The notes beneath the pieces are model-generated. The model did no database searches, was not told the DNA's origin, and worked only from the letters and a program-made list of their open reading frames with translations. From contig VGES01000007.1 in assembly GCA_016869765.1 (NCBI GenBank), positions 13,708-77,707 on the forward strand: a stretch of 64,000 bases of DNA, written 5' to 3'. The translations under genes were made by a program, and so were the position numbers. The stretch is from Alphaproteobacteria bacterium (GTDB lineage: Bacteria > Pseudomonadota > Alphaproteobacteria > SHVP01). Shown here in pieces: positions 13,311 to 54,268 of the stretch. The stretch's first letter is position 1. Every line of letters begins with the position of its first letter.

Positions 13311-13361
13311 CTTCGTTGTTGCTTTCCAACACGTCTCAAGTTCGGCACCGAATGGGTCACG

Positions 13362-16263: not shown

Positions 16264-16286
16264 ACGACATGGTGGCGGTGCGGGTA

Positions 16287-17186: not shown

Positions 17187-17204
17187 AGCCGACGAATACT
17201 GATC

Positions 17205-17981: not shown

Positions 17982-18140
17982 TTCATCTAGGTCTTACCAA
18001 AACCGAGCCATCTACTCGGGGCATCGCAAAGCCGCTGCACGGTCCGCATCCGGTTATCGTGGAGTCTTTGTACTGTCGCCAGCGATCCCCGATGGCGATC
18101 GCCTGCCAACCCTTTTCGAAAAGGCTCCGAGACGCGAGTC

Positions 18141-19890: not shown

Positions 19891-19930
19891 TTGCGTTCCC
19901 CTTGCCCGCGAAGAGTCCTACCGCTCAGTC

Positions 19931-20722: not shown

Positions 20723-20731
20723 TTGATCTTT

Positions 20732-21478
20732 TCAACCACCATCCGGTTGCGTGGGTTGAGGGGACATTTTGTTGTTCCTCGTCGCGGTGATTTCCCAGCT
20801 AGCACGTACAGTGCCTCCGAGCGCATCGCGCCTCAGGACGTGCTGAAGGTCGACGATGGCGAAATATTCGCCGAACAAAGCCTCGATGTCGCGCGGCGAC
20901 ACGAAGAACATCGTCCCTTCCTCGTCGTATGGTGTGCCACGAAAGTGGTTGTAGCTACCGTCTCCGAGGGGGTGGCCGCCGGAAACATGGGTGTCAGCGG
21001 TGCTAAACATGTGGCTATAGAGGAGGCCGCCTCTATCCAACACCCTCGCAATTTCTTCGATCGCCCTTTCGACAATGGAGCGGGCGTTGTGTGAGACCGC
21101 GGCCCGGTCGATGACAGCTTGGAACGAGCTAGTCGGCCAAGGAAGGGCATCTAGCCTCCCGACCCGAAAATCGGCGTCGTAGCCTTCTCCGGCCAGAAGC
21201 TTCCGTGCATGATCGATTGCCGTTGGCGAGCCGTCGATACCGTGCGCTGAGAATCCTTCACGTGCTAGAAACCAAACGGTATTGCCAGCACCGCAACCTA
21301 CATCGAGGATGCGAATGGATCGCCGCTCGACCCAATTTGCATCGGCAAAGCGTCTCATGACTGCGGCGACCACCCCCTGATAGGGGTAACGATTGAGCTG
21401 TCGTCCACGGCCATAAATCTGGCGCTCCCAGTGGTCGGACTGGGCGGCGGAAGGGCTATTCCCTTGGTCTCCGGTCAC
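20732..21478 (-). CDS. Class I SAM-dependent methyltransferase
   Basis: Motif I ILDVGCGAGNTVWFLAREG. Confidence 0.7.
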   Translation of the reverse strand: MTGDQGNSPSAAQSDHWERQIYGRGRQLNRYPYQGVVAAVMRRFADANWVERRSIRILDVGCGAGNTVWFLAREGFSAHGIDGSPTAIDHARKLLAGEGYDADFRVGRLDALPWPTSSFQAVIDRAAVSHNARSIVERAIEEIARVLDRGGLLYSHMFSTADTHVSGGHPLGDGSYNHFRGTPYDEEGTMFFVSPRDIEALFGEYFAIVDLQHVLRRDALGGTVRASWEITATRNNKMSPQPTQPDGG

Positions 21479-21487
21479 CGCCCCGCC

Positions 21488-22612
21488 TCAAGGATTCGCT
21501 GGTCGCGATAACCAGTGGGCCGGGTGATCGGTTGGGTGTACCGAGTTCGCGCGCCCAGAGAGCTCTTTCTTAATGCGGTCGTCAATCATCAATCCCGGCC
21601 GCCTGGTCCATGGCACCAGTCGGTTAGCGTCTTCTTGGTAGTCGAGAAATGCGTTCAGTGCTTGCTCAGAGCTCATCGACAATTCGTAGCCCTCGGACGT
21701 CATCTCATGCCGGCAGATCCATTCTATTGCCCCCAAAGCCTCGACAGGCAGCACGCTTCTCCACGTTTGCGAAGCCGGACTCTGCCCTGGGTGACTTGAG
21801 TTTCCCCGCCATCGTCCGCCTTGTTCTGTCATAAATTCTGATGGCCCGGTTGACCAGAACTCGTCGCCGATCTCGAGAAATGAGGACACGCGCGCCAGAG
21901 TTTTCGGGGTGTCTGCCACCATTTCTTCGAAGGAAAGCAGCAACACTCGATCGGCGAATCGAGCCTTCAGTTCGCGCCTATACTGTGCGGCCGTAGTCCA
22001 CATACGACCTACGAAAAGAAGTGGATGGAGGCCATCCGGGTTCCGGGATGCTCCAATCGGGTAGTTCCTCGAGGCCAGAACACCGCGTGGATCGCGAATA
22101 ATGTGAACAATACGAAGCGTCCGATCGGTGGCTACCAGTGGCGCCAACAGTTCTTCGACATAGACCTCTTTGAGTCCAACCCACGATCCCGCCGGCGCAC
22201 GGCGATATTCGGCCAATATCCCAAACAACGAATCAAGCAGTTGTGACGGGGTTGAACCGGTCAGTCGCTTTGTCACCAGTTCATCGAAAGTGACCGGCAG
22301 AGCATCTTCCTCGCCTGCCGCTCGCAGTCGTTGCTGAAGCTCGATGAGTTCGTTGGCGATCTTCGCGACGTCATATCGACCGATTGCAAGCTCTGATGGC
22401 CAATGGTCATCTCGGTCACGCAGGAAAGAAATGCCCATTGGGTCCGAGGGGTTTGACGCCAGAAATCCGCCATCATGCAGCAAGCGCCTGAGGCCCAGGA
22501 AGAGGGGAAGGGCGGGTTGATGAACGACAGAACACAGCGGATGCCGGTCGATCGTCTTCTGCAAAATCGTCGTACCCGAGCGGTAGGTTCCGCAAAGGAC
22601 TAGATGCTTCAT
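21488..22612 (-). CDS. Sulfotransferase-domain protein (PAPS-dependent)
   Basis: 5-prime PSB loop LVLCGTYRSGTTIL and 3-prime PB-like IIRDPRGVLASR. Confidence 0.65.
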   Translation of the reverse strand: MKHLVLCGTYRSGTTILQKTIDRHPLCSVVHQPALPLFLGLRRLLHDGGFLASNPSDPMGISFLRDRDDHWPSELAIGRYDVAKIANELIELQQRLRAAGEEDALPVTFDELVTKRLTGSTPSQLLDSLFGILAEYRRAPAGSWVGLKEVYVEELLAPLVATDRTLRIVHIIRDPRGVLASRNYPIGASRNPDGLHPLLFVGRMWTTAAQYRRELKARFADRVLLLSFEEMVADTPKTLARVSSFLEIGDEFWSTGPSEFMTEQGGRWRGNSSHPGQSPASQTWRSVLPVEALGAIEWICRHEMTSEGYELSMSSEQALNAFLDYQEDANRLVPWTRRPGLMIDDRIKKELSGRANSVHPTDHPAHWLSRPANP

Positions 22613-22710
22613 GCGGCGTTCAATTTCACCGCCGACAACCTGTGCGTTCCACTGTTGGTGTCAGGCGTCACGTCCTGTTTCAACCAGACCGGCGCTGTTT
22701 GACGGTGCAC

Positions 22711-23826
22711 CTAGCTCTTTCCGAGATATCCATCCGGCAGCGCACCAGCGAGGGCGACCGGCATAGCTTGTCGATCGGGCTTGCGGCTTGCGCGCACGAG
22801 CACTTCTTTCGAATAAATCTGACACTTTCGGCAAGTGTCGGGGAGCGGTTTCGTTACACCGAAGGTTGCAATGGCTTGTCGCAAGGAGCGATATTTCGAG
22901 TTGTTCCATATCTCAAGCAGATCGCTGGTACGGATGTTGCCCATCCTCAGTTCGCCGGTGATGTCATAGCAGCAAGCAGTAACTTCCCCATTGGCCCGGA
23001 CAACGATTTCATTGAACGGCATTGTGCACAATCCGAGGCCTGCCTTGGTGGCATGGCCCTCAGCGGTCGAGATCTCAAGCCCCTGTTGAGTTGCACTTTC
23101 AGCGGTCAGCCCAGGCCAGCGCATGGCATGCCCGGAATGAATCGTGCCAGGACCGAAATCATCGGCAAGAAATTTCGGTACCTGCGGTCGTGAGCCAAGT
23201 TCCGCCCGGGATGGGATTCGAATGTTGTGGATCAAGATACGAGTCTTGTCGAGAATCTTTCTCGCGCGAAGGACGTTCTCTCGAACCTTGAAATAGTTGC
23301 TTCTGATTCGGATGGCATCGTTTTCCAGCGGAGTGTCGCCATCGATCGAAACAATGATGGTGTCGACTTCGGACTCCGAGAGCTTTCTGCATGCTTGTTC
23401 GGTCAACAACATGCCGTTGGTGTGAAAATCTGTTCTTTCGACGCTCGTCTCTTTCTTTGTGCGGGAGAGCATCTCGGCAAGGCGAGGGTTCAGAAGAGGT
23501 TCTCCACTGAAGTAGAACGCGGCGTGCTTGATGCTCTTGATTGGGGTGATCTGGCCAATAATCCTATCGAAGAGCGTTGCATCCATGATGTCCTTATTGG
23601 GCGTTCCGGCGACAGCAGCCGCACCGGTTGGGCAATGGGTGCAACGAAGGTTGCACGCACTTGCTGGCTCGATGCGAATTCGTCTAGGGGAGGCAAGTCG
23701 GTATCTACGAAGGATTGCCGGTATCCCCCATTCTATGGCGTAAGGCCAAAGTCGATGGACCTCGCGTAACGGACGTTCGACCACGCCGGGGAGCAAAGAA
23801 ACGAATAACTTCCTGAGCTTTTTCAT
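22711..23826 (-). CDS. Radical SAM enzyme with SPASM/twitch-type C-terminal Cys cluster (anSME/peptide-maturase-like family)
   Basis: IRIEPASACNLRCTHCPTG (C-x3-C-x2-C) and C-terminal Cys pairs ...GEVTACCYD...CRKCQIY. Confidence 0.75.
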   Translation of the reverse strand: MKKLRKLFVSLLPGVVERPLREVHRLWPYAIEWGIPAILRRYRLASPRRIRIEPASACNLRCTHCPTGAAAVAGTPNKDIMDATLFDRIIGQITPIKSIKHAAFYFSGEPLLNPRLAEMLSRTKKETSVERTDFHTNGMLLTEQACRKLSESEVDTIIVSIDGDTPLENDAIRIRSNYFKVRENVLRARKILDKTRILIHNIRIPSRAELGSRPQVPKFLADDFGPGTIHSGHAMRWPGLTAESATQQGLEISTAEGHATKAGLGLCTMPFNEIVVRANGEVTACCYDITGELRMGNIRTSDLLEIWNNSKYRSLRQAIATFGVTKPLPDTCRKCQIYSKEVLVRASRKPDRQAMPVALAGALPDGYLGKS

Positions 23827-23989
23827 TCTGTCCGGTGTCTAGCGAAGTTGCGCCATATGAAGGGCATTCTACGTAATGCTCACGAGATGGGCACGATTGA
23901 TCATGACGCCCGGGGCGTCCTGCCTCCTATAACTCTGCCGCACCTCGAGCCTCCCGATGCGCGCAATGTCCCCGTTCAGGATGAGGATA

Positions 23990-25369
23990 TCACCCGTTCT
24001 TCCCTCGCGAACCCCTGATCACTGAACTGAAGTGGGCAACGTACTCGTCTTGAGCCGTTGGCGTTAAGGGTGAAACGTATTTCTCGAATAGCGCTCGGTA
24101 AGCGGAGTAGTAGGGCTCCGGGAGTCTTCTCGTGTCTAGTCCGGTCTGCATCAAGGTCGTCAGCTCTTCCGGAGATCGTGCCACCAATAGCCCTTCGAAC
24201 GCGTCACGATATAGGATGCGCTGATCATAGTACTCGGTTCGGACTTCGTCGAAGTGGGGGACAATGACGTAGCGCCGCGCAACGCCGGCTTCGATCAGCG
24301 TTGTGGAGTTTATCCCGACCACGACATCGCTTCTGAGGATCAGATTTTGAGCGTCCGGTTTGCTCGAAATTACGAGATTTGGAATCGTCTTTGGGTCGAT
24401 GGATGCGGCGGTCAATGCCAAACGAAAGTTCCGACGCCATTCATCTTCTGCATCTGATTTCGGTTTGATCACAACTTCGATCCCGGAGTTGTTCATAGCG
24501 AAGCGGGTGATTGTCACGGCGACCCGATCGAAATAGTCGCGCGCCATATCCGGGGGAAACGTGCCGCCTGTCCCACCGACAAGGTTGAACGGAAAGAACG
24601 TCAGTCGTCGATGGGGTGCTTCATTGTCCGGTAGTGCCGCAATTCGACGGAGAAAACGATCCATCCGGATAGCGCCCAGCGTGACCACACGATCCGCAGG
24701 CGCTACACCACATTCGATGAGGTGTCGTCTCGCGATCTCATTGTGGACGACAATCGAATCCCCCTCGAACGAAAACTTGAGCAGCGAGAGCCGCTCTCGG
24801 ATTCTTTTGAGCAATGCCGGGGACGCGTAGAGATTCTCACGATGCAAAACGACGTATGGAACCCTAAGTTCCTGGGACACAGCACCCCAGTCGAAGTCTA
24901 ACCCAAAATGGATGTGCGGACTGATGACGCAGTCGGCTCCTATGCGCCGATACAAGATCGGCAAGAAAGCGGCGAGAAAGGAACGATACCGGGATTTGGA
25001 GCGTAGCTGCTTCGAGTCCCCGTCCGGGTTGACGATCTGGCGCCAAGACGTTCGGCGGTCGTAGAAGCAATAGACGAGACGGCGAAGCCATTCTGCCGAC
25101 AATTCCAGGACACGCAACCTGCCATCGGCCGCAAGAATTTCTGGGTCGCCACGAAAACTCTCGCCCAACAGGGCGAGCACCGTTGGACGGCCCTGCTGAT
25201 GCCGCCAGCGACTAACCTGGCGTCCGTCAGGCGTACGCTCTTTTGTAGCACGTGCGAAGACGATGGCCAGCAACCTATAGGCACGTGCAGCAACGAGAAG
25301 CTTGACGACTGCCGTCTTGCCACGATGGCGGCTCGGCCAGTACCGGGTAATCTCACGTCTGATCAACAC
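23990..25369 (-). CDS. Hypothetical large cytoplasmic protein, possibly GT-B-like transferase
   Basis: 459-aa ORF, coding-like. It sits between the FemAB-like and radical SAM genes. No confident family assignment from sequence. Confidence 0.3.
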   Translation of the reverse strand: MLIRREITRYWPSRHRGKTAVVKLLVAARAYRLLAIVFARATKERTPDGRQVSRWRHQQGRPTVLALLGESFRGDPEILAADGRLRVLELSAEWLRRLVYCFYDRRTSWRQIVNPDGDSKQLRSKSRYRSFLAAFLPILYRRIGADCVISPHIHFGLDFDWGAVSQELRVPYVVLHRENLYASPALLKRIRERLSLLKFSFEGDSIVVHNEIARRHLIECGVAPADRVVTLGAIRMDRFLRRIAALPDNEAPHRRLTFFPFNLVGGTGGTFPPDMARDYFDRVAVTITRFAMNNSGIEVVIKPKSDAEDEWRRNFRLALTAASIDPKTIPNLVISSKPDAQNLILRSDVVVGINSTTLIEAGVARRYVIVPHFDEVRTEYYDQRILYRDAFEGLLVARSPEELTTLMQTGLDTRRLPEPYYSAYRALFEKYVSPLTPTAQDEYVAHFSSVIRGSRGKNG

Positions 25370-25420
25370 AACAATACTCGTTCCAATCGATCTTTCATGG
25401 GGCCGCCTTGGAGCAGTGCC

Positions 25421-26389
25421 TCATAGGTGAATGTCAAAGAACAGTCGAGGCGATGCACCAAGACTGTGCTTGAAGTCGGCCCGCGCGGGCGAGTTCGCAC
25501 CGTTGAAGTCCGCCCACTGGAGTTTCTTGTCGAAGACCCGATTGACAAAAGCGACGCACGCCATAGTCGCAGCCCCCGCGAGGCGACCGTCATCGATGGA
25601 CGCATTAGCCACAGCGTGGCCGCTACGAGAGTCGTACAGCGCAAGCTGCGCTGCGACCGGCTCACGATCTCGATCGGTGACAAATAGTATTTCCCCGATA
25701 CTTTCGGTCACGGCCGCCGTCGCCATCGCTCGGAGAGCCCGCCGGTGGTCAGCGGAAACCAGAGTTCCCTGGCGCTCGAACATCGCCGAGTACAGCCTTA
25801 AGAGAAGATCGACATCATTTCCGGAGCTTACCGTGAGACCTTCCTGTTGCGCCCTTCTCAGGTCTTGCCGACGGTCCTTTCGCCCAGCTTTGAGAACCGC
25901 CTCTACGCTGCGCAACTCTGAGCAATCGAGTAGGGCCGTATAGCGAGGCGTGATGGTACACCGGCGTTGGCCTGGTCTCCCGTAGTTGAACCAATCGAAG
26001 CCCCTGATATCCGTAATCGAATGGTGAAGGCCAAAGTGCAGTTGGCCATATTCACGGGTCAGCGTTTCGAGCAACAGGTTGGTCAGGGTCAATAGCCAAA
26101 ACGATTTGCGGGGAATCGGTAGCCCGTCAACATCGGGACTAAACATCACGCCCTGGTAGTAGGCGAACGGCATTCCCGGCAGCACATTCCCCGCTCGACG
26201 CAGTACCGCCACACCGGCCTTGATCTCACCATTTCGGGCGACGAACCATATGTCGGATACGAGATCGTGATACTTAAGAAGCCGGCCATCTTGGAACACC
26301 GTTCCCTGGAGAGAACTCGTTACAAGCAAGCTCCAATCGTCGCCTTCTGAAGAGCCGCGAAAAACCTCGAGGCCGGGGACTGGCAGCAT
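25421..26389 (-). CDS. FemAB-like / GNAT-fold acyl(aminoacyl)transferase, putative
   Basis: Size (about 320 aa) and composition resemble FemAB-family (BioF2-like) transferases. Weak motif-level support only. Confidence 0.4.
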   Translation of the reverse strand: MLPVPGLEVFRGSSEGDDWSLLVTSSLQGTVFQDGRLLKYHDLVSDIWFVARNGEIKAGVAVLRRAGNVLPGMPFAYYQGVMFSPDVDGLPIPRKSFWLLTLTNLLLETLTREYGQLHFGLHHSITDIRGFDWFNYGRPGQRRCTITPRYTALLDCSELRSVEAVLKAGRKDRRQDLRRAQQEGLTVSSGNDVDLLLRLYSAMFERQGTLVSADHRRALRAMATAAVTESIGEILFVTDRDREPVAAQLALYDSRSGHAVANASIDDGRLAGAATMACVAFVNRVFDKKLQWADFNGANSPARADFKHSLGASPRLFFDIHL

Positions 26390-26446
26390 GTCTTGGTTAG
26401 CTCTTTGATTCCGTCAGTATCAGAATCCGCGCGGCATCCCTCGGTC

Positions 26447-28069
26447 TCATCGGATGTCCCCCGCTGGTATCAAGTAGCGCCGGGCATATTCGTCTGAACG
26501 ACGCATCGGGGCTTCCATAGCTGCGTTCGCCAGATCGGCTGGGTCGAACACGATTTCAAGTCCATTGGTCAATCTCGCTTTGACCCATGCGCAACGCGAA
26601 TCGAGGGATACGCGCTCCGATGCATTCCAGCATTGCCCTTCTATTTCGAGCACCACGATTGGCGTTTCGGTCATGAGGGCCTCACCGAAAGTGGTTGTCG
26701 AAACATAGCTGAAGATCAGCAGGTCACTTTCATCGATGATGTGAATGAATGGCTGCCGAACCACGCGCTGGCATGAGGATCTCATGATGGCATCAACCTC
26801 GTTTGGTGCCTCGGGGTGAGCCTTGTAGATGACGTCGTAACCGTTAGACATAAGAACCTTCGCCATTCTCAATTCCACATCGAGGCGTGGACTGAAGAAC
26901 AGAGCCACATCTGTCGGGGCCCGTCGAAACGAGTGGTTGTAGCCAACAATCATCGCGGTTTTGCCCGTGGTCTTCTTCCTCGTCGTCGCAGAGCGAGAAC
27001 GCAAATTATTCCATCGATTGGGGATCACCGAGAAAGTGATCTCGCGAACCTTGGGCACCACGGCGATTTCGGCGCGATCAATCGCCGAGTGCATCGCAGC
27101 TGTCGATTCACACAGATACTCGGTGCAGACTGCGTAGTCGTTGTAACAGATGATGTCGTTGACGATGTGGCCTGCGTTGTGGCCATGCTGTGTACCAATT
27201 ACAGGAACACCCCTTCGCTTGTTCGCTAGTGCCAAGACACGATAGAAGGGTGGGGCTCCGGCTCCCAAGAGAACTCCAGCCGGGCGAACGGTTTCTTGGA
27301 TACCGGCGGTCAATCCAGCAAGGGTTTGCAGGCGCTTGATCCAGGCGTATTTGAGGTCGTCGATCGATATCTCTCCGCCCAGGTCGCCACAGGCACGGAC
27401 GATCTTGGCGGCGCAAGTATCGATTGCGTCGAGCAGCGACGGCGGCAACGGCCGATCGTCGTGGTCCATCCAAAGGGTGGCAAAATCCAAATTATCAACG
27501 AACCAGCCTTGTCGAACTGAGTAAGCTTCTAGCATTGGAGAAAGGTGCCCGACCACTAGCGCGGTTGGTCCAGTCTGGCCAATGAGTCTGCGAAGCAGGG
27601 GGACTCCTGGGTTGGCGCCAATGCGCCGCTTGATCCTGCGGACGCGAGAACGTATCGACGATCCGCGGGCGAGCGCCACCCGATGTTGAATCGCGAGATG
27701 CCCCCAATCAGGCCGATAGTAGGTGGCCGCGTGCGGCCCGACGTCTAAGGTGAGGCCGTATTCTTCGGCCTTGCGGGCGGTCGCCGACGAGTGGCCGATC
27801 TGGATTAAGACATCCAGTATGCGCACATCAGCCAAGAACAAGTCTTGGTCGCTGCCCGCGAGACCGTCAACAGCCTCCTTGAAGGCTTGGTAGACCGTGC
27901 CGCAAAAACCTAGGAAGTCGTCTTCGGGAATAGGCCAAGGGGGAGGTCGAGCCGTCGAACCAAAGCCGAGCCTCTGGTAGCTGACAACATCAGTCGCGAG
28001 AGTCCGACCGACCGTAGTGGCATCGAGCGTCCTATGTCTCGTCGGTGGTGAGAACTCGCGGCTTCTCAT
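26447..28069 (-). CDS. Large GT-B-like protein with K-x-HP motif (putative nonulosonate/Kdo transferase)
   Basis: Start reassigned to the internal ATG at 28069, which overlaps the upstream stop (ATGA). The ORF-track N-terminal 88 aa are Arg-rich junk. Contains VIYKAHPEAPNE ... FSYVSTTTFGEALMTETPIVVLE, the same K-x-HP architecture as the 3654-5258 protein. Confidence 0.35.
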   Translation of the reverse strand: MRSREFSPPTRHRTLDATTVGRTLATDVVSYQRLGFGSTARPPPWPIPEDDFLGFCGTVYQAFKEAVDGLAGSDQDLFLADVRILDVLIQIGHSSATARKAEEYGLTLDVGPHAATYYRPDWGHLAIQHRVALARGSSIRSRVRRIKRRIGANPGVPLLRRLIGQTGPTALVVGHLSPMLEAYSVRQGWFVDNLDFATLWMDHDDRPLPPSLLDAIDTCAAKIVRACGDLGGEISIDDLKYAWIKRLQTLAGLTAGIQETVRPAGVLLGAGAPPFYRVLALANKRRGVPVIGTQHGHNAGHIVNDIICYNDYAVCTEYLCESTAAMHSAIDRAEIAVVPKVREITFSVIPNRWNNLRSRSATTRKKTTGKTAMIVGYNHSFRRAPTDVALFFSPRLDVELRMAKVLMSNGYDVIYKAHPEAPNEVDAIMRSSCQRVVRQPFIHIIDESDLLIFSYVSTTTFGEALMTETPIVVLEIEGQCWNASERVSLDSRCAWVKARLTNGLEIVFDPADLANAAMEAPMRRSDEYARRYLIPAGDIR

Positions 28070-29388
28070 CTTTCCGTATGGCCATCGCTGGGTGCCAACA
28101 AACCAGCGGAAACGAGTTTTCGCACAGCGGGGAGGAGACTCGGCAGGGGCCGCGCAATCAAATCGGCGATCGCCAAGAGGTCGATCTCGCCGTCCGAATA
28201 GGCCAGCAGATTGAGCATCACGCGGACTTGTTCGCTTGCCTGTGCACCGCCAAGACTCGGATATAGCCCGTAGCGCCCGAGCTGCGGCTCTCCGACGGTG
28301 GTGGCGCGATAGGTTTGATTTGCCTCGAGGCACTCGATCGCGTGCTTAACGATCCGAAAACCGCCTTCGAGTCCAAGAGGGGTGACCAGATCGAGGTTGT
28401 CGAGTGAGGTGTGGTACTCGGGATAGGTGCCGTACTTCGAGCGCATCAATGAGCAGACCGGAAGGTCGACGGTCGGGAAGCCGTATTGTCGCTCATCGCT
28501 GGCTCGATCGAGGTAGTCATAGGTGTTAAAGCTACCGACCAAATGTTTCAGGGAGTGGCGGGCGGCGCGGTCAGCGAGCGTATTGCCTCGTCGCGAAGCC
28601 AAATACGAATATGCCCGCTCATCGCCAATACAGGTGAGGACGAAGCCTGCTGCGACCTGTCTCTTCAGTTCGTCAAGGCTCCGGCTCAAGAACGCGAGTG
28701 TGCCTATCGTCTCCGGCACAAAAACGAGCCGGTATCCGAAACCCCGGCGCTGAAGCGACATCAACCATTTCGCGATAAACGTCGCGACAATGGGCCCCGA
28801 AAGCTCGTTGTTTGCCATCGACGGGTGGCAAACGTAGGTCGACAAAAGAATCTCTTTGTCTCGAGTGCCTGGGAGCCTGAATTCGCCGTAGGTCAGGCTG
28901 CCGCTTGTAAGCGAGGCGTCTATACAGACCTCGTAGTCGCCGGGCAGGAGGGCATCGCGCTGCCGTTGGGAAAGGCAAAACCCCCAATTCCGCGAATAGT
29001 ACGAGGTGACGTATGGAATTGCGTCTGGCAACTCGGGCTTGGAGTGCAAGTGTCGCTGAAGTTCGTCGAGGGAGAGGCGGCGGCGAACGGGAACCGAGTA
29101 GCTAACGACATGGAGGTTGTTGGTTGCGGTGTCGACAATCTTTCGGCCGTCCGGCCCGGAGATCCAAGCCTCCCTGAGATTCCACTCGTCGGGAATCGTC
29201 CAGTCGAAGACCTTCGTCCCACTCGGGACCTCGGTAATCTCCAGCGTCGGGAGGTGTTCCCTTAGGATAGAGAGTGTTTGCCGCACACCATCTCCCGTGA
29301 TCGAGCGGCAGATTGGAAAGAGGCGCCGCGCGAGCGCGTGCATCTGCGATCCGAGGGCTTCATTTTTCGAACTCGATTGACCGGTCAT
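28066..29388 (-). CDS. Aminopeptidase-like-domain protein (DUF4910-type), glycan-cluster associated
   Basis: N-terminal SITGDGVRQTLSILREHLPTLEITEVPSGTKVFDWTIPDEW resembles DUF4910/aminopeptidase-like proteins common in polysaccharide loci. Confidence 0.4.
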   Translation of the reverse strand: MTGQSSSKNEALGSQMHALARRLFPICRSITGDGVRQTLSILREHLPTLEITEVPSGTKVFDWTIPDEWNLREAWISGPDGRKIVDTATNNLHVVSYSVPVRRRLSLDELQRHLHSKPELPDAIPYVTSYYSRNWGFCLSQRQRDALLPGDYEVCIDASLTSGSLTYGEFRLPGTRDKEILLSTYVCHPSMANNELSGPIVATFIAKWLMSLQRRGFGYRLVFVPETIGTLAFLSRSLDELKRQVAAGFVLTCIGDERAYSYLASRRGNTLADRAARHSLKHLVGSFNTYDYLDRASDERQYGFPTVDLPVCSLMRSKYGTYPEYHTSLDNLDLVTPLGLEGGFRIVKHAIECLEANQTYRATTVGEPQLGRYGLYPSLGGAQASEQVRVMLNLLAYSDGEIDLLAIADLIARPLPSLLPAVRKLVSAGLLAPSDGHTER

Positions 29389-30293
29389 CGCGGATCGTCA
29401 GACAGCCTAAGCAGGTCGGAGTCGTTCCAGGCACGCCAATCATCGCAGAACGAGTCGAGGCAACGGTCCAAGGTCGGAAGGCGCATCCCGAAAGCGTGCT
29501 CGAAGAACTCTACGTTCATCGCCATGCCGCGAGGTCTGTAGGTCTTGAGCTGGGCGTCGCCAACGCTGGCAACCACGCAAGTCTCGGTCGAAAGGCCAAG
29601 GCGCGCGGCAAGTCTCATGGCGAATTCCGCCTTACTCACCCCCGGGCCGTGATAGCCCACGTTGAACGTCCCCCGCTGCCACCGCTCGACGACTCTTGCC
29701 AGAATCCCCGGCAAGAAGCCCGCATAGATCGGGTTGAAGAAGACATCACCGAAAAGGCGCAGAGGCTGTTTCGACCGAAACGATCGAGTGAGCCATCCCG
29801 CAAACCCCTCCTTCTTTTCCGTACCCAAACAAAAAAAATTGAGTCGTAGGGCAGCGGCGTTGGCTGACAGCGCGATGTCTTCTCCCCAAAGCTTGGTCAA
29901 CGCATACACGTTCGTCGGTCGGACATCGGCCTCTCGATTGGCACCGGCACCGTCATAGACGTGGTCGCTCGACACATAGATGATTTTGGCGTCACCGGCG
30001 GCCGATACGAGGTTTCGTGTAGCGTCGACGTTTAGTCGGTAGGCGCGAGTAGGATCTGCCTCGCAAGCATCGACATCGGCCAATGCGGCCAAATGAAGGA
30101 TGACATCGGGCCGACAGCGCTTCACGAGATCGTTGACCGAACCTTTTTCCGTCAGGTCGACGGCGAGGTACGATTCACCGGAGGCCGGGGCACTGCTGGC
30201 TGCATGCCGGCAGACGAAGTATGTTTCCAAGTCTTCCGCAATAGCCCGGCCCAACAGCCCGCTGGACCCGGTGACTAGGAGTGTTGGTCTCAA
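29385..30293 (-). CDS. RmlD-like NAD(P)H-dependent sugar-nucleotide 4-ketoreductase (dTDP-4-dehydrorhamnose reductase family; WbvR-like)
   Basis: LLVTGSSGLLGRAI Rossmann motif and SSDHVYDG (compare RmlD STDYVFDG). A 4-nt overlap with the next gene. Confidence 0.7.
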   Translation of the reverse strand: MRPTLLVTGSSGLLGRAIAEDLETYFVCRHAASSAPASGESYLAVDLTEKGSVNDLVKRCRPDVILHLAALADVDACEADPTRAYRLNVDATRNLVSAAGDAKIIYVSSDHVYDGAGANREADVRPTNVYALTKLWGEDIALSANAAALRLNFFCLGTEKKEGFAGWLTRSFRSKQPLRLFGDVFFNPIYAGFLPGILARVVERWQRGTFNVGYHGPGVSKAEFAMRLAARLGLSTETCVVASVGDAQLKTYRPRGMAMNVEFFEHAFGMRLPTLDRCLDSFCDDWRAWNDSDLLRLSDDPR

Positions 30294-30306
30294 CTTGATG
30301 GAGCCG

Positions 30307-31287
30307 CTACGAACCGGTGTCGAGGATTGACAGCAGCTGTTGGTTGGTCAGCCATTGATCATTGGTCTCACTAGAGTAGCAGAATTCGGGAGCAACCAGT
30401 TTGGCGCTGGCCGGGGCAACGCGGTCCCGTGACCAAAGCGCAAACGCCGGCTCGATGACGAAGCGATCCCCCATATCGTAGGTGTAACGACTATCGTCCT
30501 CGGTGATCATCACTTCGTGCAACTTCTCGCCGGGACGAATCCCGATGGTCTTGAGAGGTAACGATGGCGCGATCGCCCGGGCAACGTCGATCACCTTCAT
30601 GCTTGGGATTTTGGGGACGAAAATCTCACCACCTTGCATTTCGCGAACACAGCGTACGACAAAGTCAACGCCTTGTTGCAAGGTGAGCCAAAATCGAGTC
30701 ATGCGCGGATCGGTGATAGGGAGGTGATCGGTGCCCCGAGCGATCAACTGACGGAAGAACGGAATGACGCTACCGCGTGAACCTATGACATTTCCGTACC
30801 GTACGACGGAAAACCTGGTTCCAACCCGACCACTCAGATTGTTGGCCGCAATGAATATCTTGTCGGAAGCAAGTTTGCTGGCGCCGTAGAGATTGATCGG
30901 ATTGGCCGCCTTGTCAGTCGATAGGGCAAGCACCCTCTGGACCCGGTTCCTGATCGCGGCTCGTACGACGTTCTCGGCACCGAAGACGTTCGTATGAATA
31001 CACTCGAAAGGGTTGTATTCGGCGGTTGGTACTTGTTTGAGTGCCGCAGCATGAACAACCAGATCGACTTCCCGCATCGCCAGCTCCAGGCGCTCCGCAT
31101 CTCGAACGTCGCCGATGAAATATCGGATCCGGCGGTCGTCGCGAAGCTCCGGATCCTGCTGCATCTCGTACTGCTTGGCTTCATCACGCGAAAACACGGC
31201 AATACGTGCCGGTGCATGCTGTCGGGTCAACGTTCGGACAAACGAACGTCCGAACGAGCCTGTCGCGCCGGTGACAAGGATGGACAT
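30307..31287 (-). CDS. UDP-GlcNAc 4,6-dehydratase, inverting (PseB/FlaA1/CapE/WbvB family)
   Basis: Start reassigned to the internal ATG at 31287 (verified cat at 31285-31287). MSILVTGATGSFGRSFV...IAVFSRDEAKQ is the hallmark of this family. 327 aa fits. Confidence 0.8.
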   Translation of the reverse strand: MSILVTGATGSFGRSFVRTLTRQHAPARIAVFSRDEAKQYEMQQDPELRDDRRIRYFIGDVRDAERLELAMREVDLVVHAAALKQVPTAEYNPFECIHTNVFGAENVVRAAIRNRVQRVLALSTDKAANPINLYGASKLASDKIFIAANNLSGRVGTRFSVVRYGNVIGSRGSVIPFFRQLIARGTDHLPITDPRMTRFWLTLQQGVDFVVRCVREMQGGEIFVPKIPSMKVIDVARAIAPSLPLKTIGIRPGEKLHEVMITEDDSRYTYDMGDRFVIEPAFALWSRDRVAPASAKLVAPEFCYSSETNDQWLTNQQLLSILDTGS

Positions 31288-31710
31288 CCCATCAAGCGAC
31301 TGGATCACGATGATCTCTGTCTGTTTTTCTGAAGGCCAATCTGCGGCCAACGCAATCAAGCTCCGCCATTCGGGTGACCTGACGGGCGCCGCGTTTCTCG
31401 TAGACCGATAAGGGACTGGCCCTTCCGCGTCAAGATCGACGGGAATTCGCGGACTTGGGCATCCGGGCTGGTGAGCTGGTGGGGCGCGCCAAACTGCTGG
31501 GCGTGATCGTTCGGGTGGATCGGCGTAACCGAGTGGATGGGGCTCGGTGAACGCCGCGGAAGTCTTGGGCGCGCGACCCAACGGATACACCTCGCGGTCG
31601 GCCCATTGGCCGGCAACGGAAGGTTCTGTTCGAGGGCCTGCGCCAATGCGGAGAATAGGCTATGGTCCGCGCACTCCCGACCCGAACGGAAGAAGGCGAC
31701 TAGGCTCGGC

Positions 31711-49455: not shown

Positions 49456-50481
49456 ATGGATTACGTCGTCTATGCATTGACGGCCGCCGCGACCCTCGCC
49501 ATTTGCTGGCGGGCCGACGCGATCGCGCGCGTTCTCGGCGTTATGGACGAACCTGACGGCAAACGAAAATTGCATGCTCGCGCGACCCCGCTCGTCGGGG
49601 GCCTCGCGATCATGCTGCCGGTGATCGGCCTTGGACTCCTCTGCGCTCTGACCCCTCCGCTCGACCGCTTCTTTCTCGCGATTGCTCTGGCCGGGGGTGG
49701 GGCGACGCTGCTCGGTTATCTCGATGATCGCCGGCATATCCCGGCGCTTCGTCGCCTCATCGTGTCGGTGGCGATCGGCGCAGGCGCCATGCTGTATGCG
49801 CCTGGTTTCGTGGTCGACGTGCTGCACTTCAGTCTTCCCGGCGCCACGTTCTTCCTCGGGGTCCCTGCGGGCGTCACCTTCACGATGTTCTGCCTCGTCG
49901 GCCTGCAGAACGCCGTCAACATGGCGGATGGCAAGAACGGTCTCGTCATCGGCATGGCGCTCATCTGGGTCCTCATTCTGATGGCACACGCCCCCGAGCC
50001 ACTGGTTCCGCTGCTCGTGGTGTTCTCCATTGGCCTCGCGATCACGTTCGTGTTCAACGTCCGCGGGCGGCTTTTTCTCGGTGACGCCGGTACCTATGGA
50101 CTTTCGATGACTCTCGGGCTGATCGCCATCTACGTGTACGAAGTGACGCCCATGACCTTCCGGGCCGACACCGCGGCTCTTCTGTTCCTGATCCCCGTGG
50201 TCGACACCTTGCGGCTCATGCTGTTTCGCGCACTGGCGGGCCATTCTCCCTTCCGTTCCGACCGCTGCCATTTCCACCACATCTTGCTCGAGCTGATGCC
50301 CTGGCATTGGTCGTTGCTGGTCTACCTGGCGCTGGTCGCGATCCCGAGTTTCCTGGCGCGCTATTGGCCGGAGTGGGCGCTGCTGTGGGCCATCGGAGCC
50401 GTGGCCATCTACGTCTGTATTGCGGCCCTACGGTATCGGGTTGCAATGGCCCGTCCGCTGGGCCATCCGTTCACCGGCTGA
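49456..50481 (+). CDS. Polyprenyl-phosphate HexNAc-1-phosphate transferase (WecA/MraY GT4 family, initiating transferase)
   Basis: About 10 TM helices. DDxxD-like GYLDDRRHI and the MADGKNG region typical of MraY/WecA. Confidence 0.75.
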   Translation: MDYVVYALTAAATLAICWRADAIARVLGVMDEPDGKRKLHARATPLVGGLAIMLPVIGLGLLCALTPPLDRFFLAIALAGGGATLLGYLDDRRHIPALRRLIVSVAIGAGAMLYAPGFVVDVLHFSLPGATFFLGVPAGVTFTMFCLVGLQNAVNMADGKNGLVIGMALIWVLILMAHAPEPLVPLLVVFSIGLAITFVFNVRGRLFLGDAGTYGLSMTLGLIAIYVYEVTPMTFRADTAALLFLIPVVDTLRLMLFRALAGHSPFRSDRCHFHHILLELMPWHWSLLVYLALVAIPSFLARYWPEWALLWAIGAVAIYVCIAALRYRVAMARPLGHPFTG

Positions 50482-50500: not shown

Positions 50501-51004
50501 CTAGGCGCGGTGCGGCACGATGTCGGCGCGATCCAATCCAACCCGCACGTTTCGCCCCAGGAACTGGAGCAGCACGATCACGCGATCATTGTCGGTCGCG
50601 CACTGGAAGATTCCAATCTGGTCACACAGCGAGGTCGTCACGATTCGCACCGCGTCCCCGGTCGTGAACTCACCTCCGCCGAGCGGGATGTAGCCATCCG
50701 AATCCTGGCGCTCTTGCAGCTCGGCGATGATTCGAGGGGAAACGACCGAGGGATGAGGGCCCATGCTGACGAGATCGACAACCCCGTTCGTCGACCTAAT
50801 GCGGCGCAGTGGGATATGTTCCAAGTCCGCCCTGACGAACAAGTAACGTGGAAACAACGGTCGCGCGACGATCGTCGTCTCCCGCGCGTGCCGACGAGTC
50901 TTGCGATATTCGGGAAGATAAACCTCGAGGCCGAGTTCCCAAAGATTGGAACGCGCCCAGCGCTCCCGGTTGGGTTGAGTGTAGGCGCAAAACCAAGCCG
51001 TCAC
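50501..51004 (-). CDS. NusG-paralog transcription antiterminator (RfaH/UpxY/LoaP-like, NGN + KOW)
   Basis: NGN-like N-terminus WFCAYTQPNRERWARSNLWELGLEVYLPEY...PLFPRYLFVRAD and a KOW-like FTTGDAVRIVTTSLCDQIGIF. Convergent with the wecA-like gene. Confidence 0.65.
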   Translation of the reverse strand: MTAWFCAYTQPNRERWARSNLWELGLEVYLPEYRKTRRHARETTIVARPLFPRYLFVRADLEHIPLRRIRSTNGVVDLVSMGPHPSVVSPRIIAELQERQDSDGYIPLGGGEFTTGDAVRIVTTSLCDQIGIFQCATDNDRVIVLLQFLGRNVRVGLDRADIVPHRA

Positions 51005-51630
51005 GGTCGTCTCACGATCTTGAGCAGCGGCGGGGCGAAAACGCGCTCGCGACCGTAGCCGTCGACGAGGGCGTCGTAGGCCGACTGCGGCGCCTTCGAG
51101 TCCGTCACGAGGAAGGCGGCGACGTTGCTGAGCGCAGCGGCATTGGTCACGGTTGGCACGCCCATGATCTCAGGGCCGCCCTCGGACGCAATGATTCCCG
51201 CAATGGCGACGCCTCGGTGGGACGCGAAGAGCAGAGCAATCTCCGAAAGGTCGCCACGGCCGACCAAGGCGATCGGCGTCAGCCGCTGGGTCGCCACCGT
51301 GTCGAGCAACTGTTCGATCTCGCTGCGGGCCCGGCGATAGAACCGCAAGGAATCGGAAAGGTATTGCGCCGTCAGGCGTCCCTTTTCGCTGAAGCCTTTG
51401 GGCGTGAGGTAATAGGCGTAACGGTTCGCCGGCGCTTCCGACACCTTAATGAGGCCCTTGCGGATGCACCGCTTGAGGTAGGCGTTGGTCAGGCCGAGCG
51501 CGATGCCCAATTCCTGGGCCAAAGATCGTTGCGATCGCTGACCGTCGCTCTCGACGGCCTGAAGCAAACCCAGCGTAATTTCGCCTTCGATTGGGCCGCC
51601 GCCCACGGGGGCGCCGTTCCTCGTGTTCAT
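51001..51630 (-). CDS. Winged-HTH transcriptional regulator with C-terminal Rossmann-like domain
   Basis: LLQAVESDGQRSQRSLAQELGIALGLTNAYLKRCIRKGLI (wHTH). 4-nt overlap with the NusG-paralog gene, so the two form one operon. The start codon is embedded in a palindromic element. Confidence 0.5.
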   Translation of the reverse strand: MNTRNGAPVGGGPIEGEITLGLLQAVESDGQRSQRSLAQELGIALGLTNAYLKRCIRKGLIKVSEAPANRYAYYLTPKGFSEKGRLTAQYLSDSLRFYRRARSEIEQLLDTVATQRLTPIALVGRGDLSEIALLFASHRGVAIAGIIASEGGPEIMGVPTVTNAAALSNVAAFLVTDSKAPQSAYDALVDGYGRERVFAPPLLKIVRRP

Positions 51631-51663
51631 GGCGTGAACACTAGGGTGTTCATGCCATGAACG
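51623..51663. promoter_or_regulatory. Tandem palindromic operator-like element in divergent regulator/HK promoter region
   Basis: GTGTTCA-n5-TGAACAC-n4-GTGTTCA-n5-TGAACG: four alternating 7-bp half-sites. The regulator ATG (cat at 51628-51630) lies inside the first half-site. Confidence 0.4.
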
Positions 51664-51703
51664 TCAAGGACCGCGCGTTGACAGTGGCGTCGTCCGGAGG
51701 ACA

Positions 51704-54268
51704 ATGACGCGTCCGCCGCAAAGGATTCTCCGAATTTCGACCCCATCGCCTTATCGCCCGTCGCTGCGCGCGTTGGTCGCGGGTGGCGTCATTGCCGCCG
51801 CGGCCATCGCTGTGGCGTTGCTGTGGCGGGGGGCTGAAAATGCCCATCAGGTGGCGGATCTCCAGATCCGGCGCCTCGCGGCACTCGAGCGGGACGTCCG
51901 AGCGGCAGCCATCGTTGCCCAGGAACTGGCTCTGGTGGAACGCCGCCAGGAAGCGGAGGTGGTCGCAGATCGTGCGCTCGCCTTGGTGGTGACCCTGCGG
52001 CAGGCGACGAGCGGGTTGCCGGGATCGGCGCCGAGTGGCGAGGTTGTGCGGGTCGGTGCCGATCTGGCGCGTAGCGTCGATGGACTGCTTGGCGACCTGA
52101 ACGATCTGGCAGTCGATGGCGGCGAGCGGTCGCTACGCGCGACGCGGGCCGCGGCGATCGTCGATGCCGTCCGCGGTCCGGTGACCGAAAACGCACTCCG
52201 GTTGGTCGTTGCGATCGAAGAGCGCCGCGCCGAGCGCGTCGGTCTCTACACGACGATCGGCTACGTCCTCACCACGGTCCTGGCGGGTTTGGCGCTCGGT
52301 TCGATGGCCAGGCGCCGCCGCTCCGAGCGTCCCGCTCGCGAAACCTCGGCGGTCTCCGGCCGACATGCGCCGGCCGACATCCTCGGTCAATTGGCTGCGG
52401 GTGGAGCACTGTTCGATGCCCAGGATCGGCTGATCTACGCCAACGAGGCGTTCCGCGACGTCTTCGAGGTGGGCGATGACCCGATCCCGGCCGGCACGCC
52501 CTATGAGATGGTCTTTCGCGGGGCCGCCGTCAAAGGCCGCATCGCCGGCGTACGGCGCGATGAAACCGATTGGCTCGCGCGGCGCATGGAGCGTCATCGC
52601 GATGAAGGGACGGTTCGCGACAAGTTGTCCACCAGCACCGGCCGGTCGTTCGAAACCATGGAAACGCGCCTCGCCAACGGTGGCACTTTCGTTCTGCATA
52701 TCGACGTCACCGACTACGAACGACGGGAAGCGGCGCGCCAAACCGCCGAGCAAAAGGCTCTGGCGATGCTCGACACCGTTTTCGACGGCGTCATGACGTT
52801 CGATGTCGACGGCACGATCGATACGGTCAACAAACGGACGGCCGACATTTTTTCCTACCAGGTCGAAGACCTACGCGGTCGCCCATTGCGCACGATCATG
52901 CCTCATCTCGATCTCAAGCAGGCGCTCAACGGCGACCTTTCCAATGGCACCTTGTCCGAAATCGTCGGTCGTCGGCGGGACGGAAACGAGTTTCCGCTCG
53001 AGATCTCCGGCAACGAAATCAAAGACACTTGGTCCCTGGCGGATCGGCGCCGGGCACAGCGGCGGACCTTCATGTTTACGCTGCGCGATGTGACCCGGCA
53101 AAAACAACTCGCACGCCAGGTCGAACAGGCGCAACGCATGGACGCCATCGGCACGCTCGCCGGCGGCATTGCCCACGACTTCAACAACATTCTTTCGATC
53201 ATCATGGGCTATGGCGGCCTCCTGCAGCAGGAATTGCCGGACGGCAGCGAAGGGCGCGAGCATGCGGACATGGTTGTCCAGGCGGCCCGCCGTGGGCGTG
53301 GCCTGGTGGATCAGATACTGACCTTCAGCCGGCGCACCGATCTTCAGAAGAAACCGCTCGACCCCGCGCCTGTCGTCAAAGAAGCGCTCAAACTCATGCG
53401 CTCGACCTTGCCCGTGACCCTTCGCATCGAACAGTCCATCGATTCGCGAGGACGTACCGTCGTGGCCGATCCGTCGCAGCTCCATCAGGTGCTAGTCAAC
53501 CTGTGCACCAATGCCGCCCAGGCGATCGGCGACCGTCCAGGGGAAGTTCGTGTGGGCCTCGATGTTCGACCTTTGTCGGCCTCGGATGCCGAGCGCCTGG
53601 GAGTCCCGGCGGGCGACTATTTCCGTCTGACCGTGGCCGACGATGGGGCCGGGATCGACTCGGCGATCCGGGAACGGGTGTTCGAACCGTTCTTCACGAC
53701 CAAGGAACGTGGTCGCGGAACGGGTCTCGGGCTATCGGTGGTGCACGGCATCGTCAGCGATCTCGGCGGCTCGATTGCTCTCACGAGTGCTGTCGGCAAG
53801 GGCACCACGTTCGAAATCTTGCTGCCCGCAGACCGCGCGCCGGCCGTTCCCGAGGTCGCCACCGAACCGGGACGCGCGCCGCTTGGAAAGGCCCGCGTTC
53901 TCTTCGTCGATGACGAAGAGCCGATCGTTCGCATGGGGCAGAAGGTGCTGGCGCGCCTGGGCTACACGGTTGTCGGTGCGACGATCTCGGAAGAAGCGTT
54001 GGCAGCCTTCCGAGCCACGCCGCAGAGTTTCGACCTCGTCATTACCGATCAGACGATGCCTGGCCTCACGGGTGATGCTTTGGTTCGCGAGATCCGGCGT
54101 TTGCGCCCGGATATTCCGATCATCCTCTGCACGGGTTACAGCCAGTCGGTCGGGGTCGACGAAGCCAAGCGACTCGGGATCGACCGGTTCCTGATGAAGC
54201 CGCTCGAGGCGTCCGAACTCGGCCAAGCGGTCGGCGAAGCACTGGCTGCGGAAGACCGCAGCGGCTAG
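51704..54268 (+). CDS. Hybrid sensor histidine kinase (TM, PAS x2, HisKA, HATPase_c, C-terminal receiver)
   Basis: H-box IAHDFNNILSIIMGY, G-boxes in ...GTGLGLSVV..., and REC VLFVDDEEPIV...DLVITDQTMPGLTG. SD ggagga lies 4 nt upstream of ATG 51704. Confidence 0.85.
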   Translation: MTRPPQRILRISTPSPYRPSLRALVAGGVIAAAAIAVALLWRGAENAHQVADLQIRRLAALERDVRAAAIVAQELALVERRQEAEVVADRALALVVTLRQATSGLPGSAPSGEVVRVGADLARSVDGLLGDLNDLAVDGGERSLRATRAAAIVDAVRGPVTENALRLVVAIEERRAERVGLYTTIGYVLTTVLAGLALGSMARRRRSERPARETSAVSGRHAPADILGQLAAGGALFDAQDRLIYANEAFRDVFEVGDDPIPAGTPYEMVFRGAAVKGRIAGVRRDETDWLARRMERHRDEGTVRDKLSTSTGRSFETMETRLANGGTFVLHIDVTDYERREAARQTAEQKALAMLDTVFDGVMTFDVDGTIDTVNKRTADIFSYQVEDLRGRPLRTIMPHLDLKQALNGDLSNGTLSEIVGRRRDGNEFPLEISGNEIKDTWSLADRRRAQRRTFMFTLRDVTRQKQLARQVEQAQRMDAIGTLAGGIAHDFNNILSIIMGYGGLLQQELPDGSEGREHADMVVQAARRGRGLVDQILTFSRRTDLQKKPLDPAPVVKEALKLMRSTLPVTLRIEQSIDSRGRTVVADPSQLHQVLVNLCTNAAQAIGDRPGEVRVGLDVRPLSASDAERLGVPAGDYFRLTVADDGAGIDSAIRERVFEPFFTTKERGRGTGLGLSVVHGIVSDLGGSIALTSAVGKGTTFEILLPADRAPAVPEVATEPGRAPLGKARVLFVDDEEPIVRMGQKVLARLGYTVVGATISEEALAAFRATPQSFDLVITDQTMPGLTGDALVREIRRLRPDIPIILCTGYSQSVGVDEAKRLGIDRFLMKPLEASELGQAVGEALAAEDRSG

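Follow-up and report, generated by a model that had tools for sequence, protein, structure and literature searches.

RfaH is the textbook operon-specific elongation factor, and nearly all that is known about this protein comes from enterobacteria. Other NusG paralogs, such as UpxY of Bacteroides fragilis, TaA of Myxococcus and LoaP of Bacillus, are encoded at the head of the long polysaccharide or antibiotic operon that they serve, and UpxY is also part of a two-gene unit with UpxZ, which follows UpxY and is not known to be a DNA-binding protein. The enterobacterial rfaH gene stands alone, and its product acts in trans (Wang et al. 2020, PMC7593976). The subject of the present work is a pair of genes, encoding an RfaH-like protein and a winged-helix partner, on a 64-kb stretch of DNA from an alphaproteobacterium (contig VGES01000007.1 of assembly GCA_016869765.1), which in its entirety is called the window and on the forward strand of which all coordinates are given.

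The best overall explanation of the observations, which we regard as moderately probable, is that the pair is a self-regulated bicistron and that its RfaH-type factor acts in trans on a 30-kb block of glycan genes in the same window. The factor and RfaH of the Enterobacteriaceae have the same two-domain size and architecture, can be aligned over their full length, carry an F56-type motif and are associated with glycan operons (lipopolysaccharide (LPS) and capsule in the case of RfaH), whereas the identity to Escherichia coli RfaH is only 26% over 154 amino acids (aa), curated cut-offs are missed, the residues that contact the ops element as well as E48 are replaced, and the KOW domain is modelled as a barrel. 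The genetic arrangement is different as well, as the rfaH-like gene comes second, after the gene for a dedicated regulator, and was ancestrally located in cis to the genes served, whereas rfaH of enterobacteria has no such companion. The resulting layout of the relatives is like that of UpxY, TaA and LoaP, and the partner of the factor is here a winged helix-turn-helix (wHTH) protein that precedes it.

The RfaH-like protein and its winged-helix partner

The rfaH-like gene (50501..51004, minus strand) starts with GTG and encodes 167 aa with an NGN domain and a KOW barrel. The partner gene (51001..51630, minus strand; ATG start, 209 aa) ends in the sequence GTGA at 51001-51004, of which the four nucleotides (nt) are common to both genes, and both open reading frames (ORFs) are intact. 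An earlier note on this DNA had described a two-gene operon with a 4-nt overlap, and the coordinates, the frames and both domains were indeed found as stated there: among the window proteins, Pfam assigns the rfaH-like product to the NusG/NGN family PF02357 (62 bits, E=7.6e-17) and the partner to HTH_24 (E=1e-09).

When NCBIfam models are ranked for the 167-aa protein, RfaH (TIGR01955) comes out on top with 115.7 bits and a match that covers model positions 1-157 of 159, followed by UpxY (NF033644, 64.9 bits), the housekeeping NusG (TIGR00922, 42.9 bits) and LoaP (NF033641, 31 bits). The curated cut-offs are missed for all of them, including the two RfaH models (144.5 for TIGR01955; 80.9 bits vs 124 for NF006534), and the scores are far below the cut-offs of UpxY (100) and LoaP (125); that of NusG is 135.7. 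A search of the PDB gave E. coli RfaH as the best match, over its full length (E=1.5e-8), and NusG at E=3.5e-3, in agreement with the statement in the earlier note that this is not a housekeeping NusG. An identical public database entry, from an alphaproteobacterial metagenome-assembled genome (MAG), is named 'transcriptional activator RfaH' by NCBI. The surroundings contain no secE, rplK or rplA; instead, the neighbours are genes for a histidine kinase, the wHTH partner and a glycosyltransferase of the GT4 type. An NGN plus a KOW domain in about 160 aa, outside the secE-nusG-rplKA context, is the architecture of the RfaH type, and these comparisons identify the 167-aa product as a specialised NusG paralog of that type, though not as an equivalog of enterobacterial RfaH.

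The same note had held that a NusE-type C-terminus is lacking, which was not borne out: a KOW-type domain is present, as indicated by the alignment to 157 of the 159 RfaH model positions and by an AlphaFold2 model (40-sequence alignment, pLDDT 92.9) with an NGN fold and a five-stranded barrel, of which the pLDDT is 85-93. The motif Y54-L55-F56 is invariant among 40 family members. In RfaH, F56 is tied to stable binding of RNA polymerase through a tight grip on the beta' clamp helices (Wang et al. 2020, PMC7593976). Equivalents of I93 and F130 of RfaH are also found in the window protein.

The partner consists of a very conserved N-terminal part, in which aa 17-112 (approximately) form the winged helix, a long helix, and a C-terminal domain of about 100 aa (about aa 115-209) for which a beta-alpha-beta, Rossmann-like fold is confidently predicted (pLDDT about 93). 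The winged helix is related to the MarR EPS-associated family (TIGR04176, MarR_EPS), a single domain of about 105 aa. Its model aligns over positions 4-103 of 105 with the N-terminal half only (aa 17-112) and misses its cut-off (71.9 bits vs 88), and the family lacks the further 100-aa domain that the partner possesses. For that domain no Pfam family was detected in any of 40 members, and even the best matches were weak, namely to the NAD(P)-binding N-domain of UDP-glucose dehydrogenase in Foldseek (E=0.03) and to that of meso-diaminopimelate dehydrogenase in a profile search (E=0.02). The remark in the earlier note that the C-terminal half has no obvious assignment thus still holds.

In layout (wHTH plus Rossmann-like domain) and in size, the partner is reminiscent of the redox repressor Rex, a likeness that no tool reproduced. 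The analogy was not supported: the Rex domains Put_DNA-bind_N and CoA_binding went undetected in the 40 members and no Rex protein is present among the top 50 Foldseek matches. Furthermore, the GxGxxG motif of Rex is not conserved (of the glycines in a GxGxxG-like motif, the first alone is invariant), and the palindrome described below differs from the Rex box.

Relatives of the rfaH-like gene were found with a sequence pattern in at least 585 species genomes, one genome being searched per species. The best 80 genomes belong almost all to Alphaproteobacteria (Rhodospirillaceae, Xanthobacteraceae, Bradyrhizobium, Afipia, Ferrovibrio and many MAGs). After removal of near-duplicates a non-redundant set of 65 loci remained, the window included. 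A homolog of the 209-aa protein is present in 62 of these 65 loci; it is located directly upstream on the same strand in 59, with a 4-nt overlap in 25. Sampling from the side of the partner gave the same picture, since for partner homologs on long contigs the next gene encoded a NusG domain in four out of four cases. The rfaH-like gene and the wHTH gene are a conserved bicistron.

Two types of the factor can be recognized. In type A, to which the window protein belongs, helix alpha1 reads WARSNLWELG, while type B has the RfaH-like helix xKAxxxLxRQGF in which R23-Q24 are kept. One locus (L069) carries two rfaH-like copies (1247-1837 and 10140-11393), each followed by an identical copy of the hairpin-ops element discussed below, and the module appears to have been duplicated there.

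The family has already been catalogued by Wang et al. (2020, PMC7593976), and is probably the same as their RfaH cluster CL4. CL4 is treated there in one sentence, without an operator, promoter, loading element, analysis of the partner domain or gene cassette. Our literature search yielded no experiments on the module, and specifically no experimental paper on the palindromes, the hairpin-ops element or the second domain of the partner.

Promoter palindromes and the proposed loading element of relatives

The intergenic region upstream of the partner gene (51631-51703) is only 73 nt long. It carries two palindromes set 23 bp apart: a proximal one (TGTTCATGGCGTGAACA, 51624..51640), which is an exact copy of TGTTCA-N5-TGAACA and lies over the predicted -10 hexamer and the annotated start codon, and a distal one (TGTTCATGCCATGAACG, 51647..51663), which has one mismatch to the same pattern and lies over the predicted -35 hexamer. 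The predicted sigma-70-type promoter of the bicistron (51638..51667, minus strand) is composed of a -35 TTGACG (51667-51662), an 18-nt spacer and a -10 TAGTGT (51643-51638). The distal palindrome falls within the 12-mer CTTGACGTTCAT, of which 10- and 11-mer cores recur in 54 and 45 of the 65 loci, respectively; the 11-mer CTTGACGTTCA (45/65) is the most over-represented one across the loci. When the upstream regions are aligned on this 11-mer, the consensus cTTGACGTTCAynnnrTGAACg-nnn-TAgTGTTCAynnnrTGAACa is obtained. Of 62 upstream regions, 54 have the -35 TTGACG, and in 39 of these 54 a TAnnnT hexamer follows at a distance of 16-19 nt, which is 18 nt in nearly all.

The association of the palindrome with the partner gene is strong. 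With at most one mismatch allowed, TGTTCA-N5-TGAACA occurs 61 times in the 20 kb upstream of wHTH genes and three times in the remaining 1.07 Mb, an enrichment of about 930-fold, and at least one copy is present in 48 of 62 loci. In four loci where the partner gene is displaced (L061, L079, L081, L082), the palindromes have stayed with the wHTH gene. Palindromes over the -35 and -10 hexamers form the classical layout of an autorepressed promoter, and because of this position and of the enrichment upstream of its own gene, it is likely that the partner represses its own promoter; binding of a partner dimer would be the simplest reading. In the duplicated locus L069 a palindrome is found upstream of each of the separated genes: the first rfaH-like copy has one even though no partner gene adjoins it, and the second palindrome precedes the wHTH gene of the second copy.

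The annotated ATG of the partner (51630) lies inside the proximal palindrome, only 8 nt after the -10 hexamer, and many partner homologs begin with MNT or MNK, which corresponds to an ATGAAC half-site read as codons. The bicistron mRNA may thus be leaderless, or translation may start at the GTG that is codon 9. On the other side of the intergenic region, the promoter of a divergent histidine kinase gene must share the 73 nt with both palindromes, and therefore co-regulation of the kinase with the bicistron may be envisaged. A promoter-like site (TTGACA-16-GACAAT) overlaps the annotated ATG of the kinase, the true start of which may be located further downstream.

A second conserved signal is found downstream of the pair. 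Among the k-mers shared between loci with the two genes masked, GGACTGCGGTAGC emerged de novo, and many relatives have a hairpin plus TGCGGTAGCnTG behind the pair. The full element, TCACCCGGAC-TGCGGTAGC-nTGGaAAA, lies on the same strand, 34-76 nt after the stop codon of the rfaH-like gene. Its core GCGGTAGCnTG corresponds to positions 2-9 and 11-12 of the ops12 element of E. coli, GGCGGTAGCGTG (Zuber et al. 2018, PMC5995543). A hairpin with TCACCCGGnn as its 3' arm extends up to this core. According to RNAfold, the hairpin abuts the core on its upstream side in nearly all of 25 sites. The base of the stem covaries (GGAC/GTCC, GAAG/CTTC, GGAG/CTCC, TGAG/CTCA), with a covariation score of 0.17 for the model-fitted alignment as compared to 0.10 for shuffled alignments (of which 0 of 500 scored as high) and no more than 0.093 when the partners were slid. 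In loci such as L052 (10526-10588), L066 (10539-10601) and about 25 others, the composite element shows a hairpin of 10-12 bp with compensatory changes abutting TGCGGTAGC. Where the wHTH gene heads an rmlB-rmlA operon (L061, L081), its own leader contains the element as well.

Compared to E. coli ops, the element thus has an extra upstream hairpin, and no Rfam family matched it, the JUMPStart RNA motif included, even when E values up to 10 were accepted. It resembles a signal of the ops DNA type rather than an RNA hairpin alone as used by LoaP. A covariance model, R1, was built from 26 sites, on which it scores 32-60 bits; further copies were found with it, and scores in this range are obtained in about 27 loci. 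The first genes after the element encode NeuB, PseB-like proteins, GT2 glycosyltransferases, sugar epimerases and dehydratases, GFO/IDH/MocA oxidoreductases, UDP-glucose dehydrogenase, M20 peptidases and ABC exporters. For the rfaH-like family, a role as a processive antiterminator of glycan operons is well supported by comparative data.

The element is nearly always present in type B loci; within type A it is restricted to certain lineages, where position 6 of ops is T or C, and many type A loci have no recognisable element before the next gene. In a second sample, for which 80 independent metagenome loci with a PseB homolog as anchor were taken, it was found upstream of PseB on the same strand in 10 loci, in four of which an rfaH-like gene adjoins. 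Three loci with the element upstream of a PseB-like gene (L112, L136, L114) have no rfaH-like gene within the 2-4.8 kb of upstream sequence covered; the pair is therefore not always adjacent to the element.

A group of marine type A loci (L020, L021, L023, L027, L031, L034, L042) is without the ops-like element and has a GCGCTA(A/T)AGCACGG-like stretch in the first 20-40 nt after the rfaH-like stop codon, before an M20 peptidase gene. This stretch may be a diverged signal or merely a conserved junction. A k-mer enrichment restricted to type A loci was rejected, as it yielded nothing but motifs conserved in the coding sequences of M20, NeuC and further genes downstream.

The glycan block and competing explanations

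The candidate target in trans is a block of about 30 kb on the minus strand (1256..31308), in which a PseB-like gene is the first gene according to Pfam. Its existence and its internal gaps, both pointed out in the earlier note, were confirmed, as was the location of the pair at the edge of a glycan locus, a large glycan region being evident from the Pfam and NCBIfam assignments. The block contains three NeuB homologs (5790-7328, fused to a cupin; 13362-14513; 18820-19890) and three CMP-transferase homologs (2938-3657, 7899-8639, 17205-17981), as well as genes for a NeuC-like epimerase, an ABC exporter, two radical SAM enzymes, two PhyH-like dioxygenases and a sulfotransferase. This gene content suggests that more than one modified nonulosonic acid is made. 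The G+C content of the block is about 5 points below that of its flanks. Its PseB-like first gene probably starts at GTG 31308, rather than at 31590 or at ATG 31287. The gaps extend up to 570 nt (5259-5789, 531 nt; 7329-7898, 570 nt) and hold no ORF that can be assigned by Pfam.

A connection between pair and block is given by a nonulosonic-acid cassette inside the block (7899..16263, minus strand), encoding an ABC exporter, NeuB, a NeuC-like epimerase, a 2-hydroxyacid dehydrogenase, a thiamine pyrophosphate (TPP) enzyme, a GFO/IDH/MocA oxidoreductase and a CMP-transferase. In eight type A relatives (L013, L015, L017, L025, L032, L033, L037, L047) the same cassette lies directly behind the pair and in the same order, starting with the ABC exporter or M20 gene. 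Most of its products are 55-71% identical between the window and these relatives, the TPP enzyme 44-53% and the ABC exporter 28-32%. In the window, the pair sits 34 kb from the cassette. Synteny therefore supports a link between the pair and the glycan locus: the pair has become separated from an ancestral operon in cis, and the support that this lends to the block as target is real, if indirect.

On this basis, the following mechanism can be proposed. The NGN domain would bind elongating RNA polymerase, as expected by homology, and prevent pausing and termination across long glycan operons. The partner would repress its own promoter by binding the two TGTTCA-N5-TGAACA palindromes over the -35 and -10 hexamers, and would probably be released from them by a small ligand, so that a signal would set the amount of the elongation factor. 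In the ancestral layout the same transcript would run through the hairpin and TGCGGTAGCnTG, where the factor would load, and then into the nonulosonic-acid and other glycan genes. In the window the pair has been uncoupled from these genes and is convergent with an operon for LPS core and an initiating transferase, and the factor would act in trans, most likely on the 30-kb block.

Several observations weigh against this proposal. The residues through which E. coli RfaH contacts ops, K10, H20, R23, Q24 and R73 (Zuber et al. 2018, PMC5995543), are Q, N, E, L and N in the window protein. The glutamate of the autoinhibitory salt bridge in RfaH, E48, is replaced by R48, and is R or A across the family. 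Since AlphaFold2 gives the KOW domain as a beta-barrel and E48 is R48, fold-switch control in the manner of RfaH is not supported, as far as can be judged from a single barrel prediction. That the partner binds the palindromes is something that we infer, and in the window neither a scan with the palindrome nor one with the inter-palindrome pattern found a site near a glycan promoter. No canonical loading element occurs in the 64 kb either, the maximum score with a position weight matrix (PWM) being 8.3 bits as compared to 25-48 bits for real sites, and with the filters of R1 off, the window maxima were 10.6 and 10.4 bits (E=0.11 and 0.13).

The second of these maxima (31346-31407, E window-wide) includes a degenerate look-alike, GTCACCCGAATGGCGG_AGCTTG (31357..31378, minus strand), which precedes the likely GTG start of the PseB-like gene by 48 nt. 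True elements before PseB orthologs in the loci L048 and L080 can be aligned with it, but the look-alike also counts among the adverse points, as it is devoid of ops T6 and of the 5' arm of the hairpin; T6 is one of the two bases read by E. coli RfaH (Zuber et al. 2018, PMC5995543). The other 160 related loci contain no variant without this T, and a search aimed at such a variant in the 80 PseB-anchored metagenome loci was negative. A relaxed pattern that tolerates the missing base gives 34 matches in 1.36 Mb, 31 of them true sites, and is expected by chance 0.17 times per window, or roughly 6e-4 times in the 423-nt leader on one strand. The look-alike may be a relic or a variant, and is not evidence of function.

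The earlier note had suggested to look for ops-like or hairpin recruitment motifs in two leaders. No canonical element turned up: the leader at 31288-31710 has only the degenerate copy without T6 and hairpin, and that at 44054-44613 (560 nt) has no element, with a PWM score of at most -10 on the plus strand and no relevant match to Rfam or R1. Of the central claim of that note, a candidate processive antiterminator for the 30-kb operon, the specialised paralog was upheld and its connection to the operon gained indirect support through cassette synteny, but no canonical recruitment element was found in the window. Action of the rfaH-like protein on the block is plausible in view of its gene neighbourhood in relatives.

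Several candidate sites in the window were discarded. The E. coli ops sequence GGCGGTAG has 75 scattered matches with at most one mismatch, and the only one in a leader, GGCCGTAG at 44312, has one mismatch and no support from a model. Rfam searches of the window and of both leaders returned a tRNA and a chance match, and no JUMPStart match. The best PWM match of the window, at 5295 on the minus strand (8.3 bits), was rejected as a chance GCGGTAG. None of the window's 13 GCGG[TC]AGC cores falls within the leaders and gaps examined, and the four that were read encode Gly-Ser motifs (in RmlA, an epimerase, the PseB-like protein and a neighbouring ORF). A wider regulon was also sought by means of the palindrome, and was dropped for want of a site near any glycan promoter of the window. 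In the gap at 5259-5789, the operon strand reads TGCGGTAGTTGG at about 5301-5312, a weak ops-like core (PWM 8.3 bits) that probably arose by chance.

The data can also be explained in other ways. It is conceivable, though in our view unlikely, that the factor is functional and serves a target other than the 30-kb block, either the convergent plus-strand operon (44614-50481) or operons elsewhere in the genome, of which the window is only a part, with intact elements. The absence of an intact element from the window would fit this, and a functional tie to the immediate region is suggested by the order histidine kinase, wHTH and rfaH-like genes, GT4 and WaaA genes, which is kept across relatives that are only 50-58% identical. 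However, the 560-nt leader of that operon is without an element, the operon is convergent with the pair and not downstream of it, and the 30-kb block contains the cassette that relatives have in cis to the pair. That the pair is an orphaned remnant, left without a specific target after its separation and the decay of the loading site, would account for the degenerate leader copy with its deleted T6 and lost hairpin arm and for the replaced ops-contact residues. We nevertheless think this very improbable, as both frames are intact, the promoter and palindromes are near-perfect copies of the family consensus, and the uncoupled layout persists in many lineages whose proteins are about 50% identical, which speaks for purifying selection.

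A distinctly unlikely alternative is that another regulator binds the palindromes and that the wHTH protein activates glycan promoters or acts on the RfaH-like protein, as UpxZ does on UpxY. The 4-nt overlap implies coupled and near-stoichiometric synthesis, as would suit a protein-protein partnership, but in loci with the two genes apart, the palindromes are found with the wHTH gene rather than with the rfaH-like one, an inverted repeat of 17 bp suits a winged-helix dimer, and after masking no second conserved motif common to glycan promoters was found. The possibility that the 167-aa protein is the housekeeping NusG is effectively refuted. It has the shared NGN domain in its favour and nothing more, whereas the NusG score is far below its cut-off and the RfaH score much higher, the secE/rplK/rplA context is missing, the protein is only 167 aa long with an RfaH-type F56, and the family coexists with large genomes, housekeeping NusG being near universal (Wang et al. 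2020, PMC7593976).

Within the favoured explanation, a self-regulated bicistron with action in trans on the 30-kb block, a more specific version can be formulated, which is tentative and to which we would give a rather low probability. The unclassified Rossmann-like domain of the partner might read a nucleotide-type metabolite, such as a nucleotide-sugar or NAD(P)H, and thereby set the level of the RfaH-like factor, which would load at the hairpin plus ops and drive nonulosonic-acid operons as part of a previously undescribed, signal-gated elongation switch. The window lineage might then have lost both the site in cis and the canonical reading residues, so that a different mode of recruitment would operate.

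If the proposed regulation is correct, the family would place an RfaH-like factor under a dedicated and probably ligand-responsive autoregulator, which would add a layer of control at the level of factor abundance. The ops core is almost identical to that of E. coli while the proteins differ in DNA-reading residues, which bears on the evolution of recruitment specificity, and cis, divergent and trans layouts of a single module are available in nature for comparison. The module is also a marker of surface glycan loci for nonulosonic acids in many uncultured Alphaproteobacteria, and provides a simple sequence signature by which such loci can be found.

Neighbouring genes and further observations

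The rfaH-like gene is arranged tail to tail with a WecA/MraY-like GT4 gene (49456..50481, plus strand; Pfam and NCBIfam), the stop codons being 19 nt apart. This is the last gene of the plus-strand operon mentioned above, which further encodes RmlB-like and RmlA-like proteins, an epimerase, a SIS protein and the Kdo transferase WaaA. Divergent from the pair is the gene for a hybrid PAS histidine kinase with a receiver domain (51704..54268, plus strand; Pfam). In the subclade of the window (L001-L004, L005-L007, L010-L012, L016, L046, L166) the GT4 gene is a kept neighbour, and kinase homologs that are 47-58% identical occupy the same position in L005, L006, L010-L012, L016 and L046; PAS_7 hybrid kinases are also found at this position in L166 and on the P0163 contig. 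As the layout of kinase, pair and GT4-WaaA genes recurs in relatives of only about 50-58% identity, it is a stable arrangement and not a recent accident.

The G+C content is 55-59% in the first 44 kb of the window and 61-66% in the rest, with the part from 31.5 to 44 kb being a mixed region between the minus-strand block and the plus-strand operon. This region contains two methyltransferase paralogs in opposite orientation (39932-40678, minus strand; 42241-43005, plus strand), which are 43% identical over 232 aa and have a gene for an ArnT/PMT_2-like membrane glycosyltransferase (40675-42234) in between. A tRNA gene (54312-54383, plus strand; Rfam, 62.5 bits) is located directly downstream of the histidine kinase gene.

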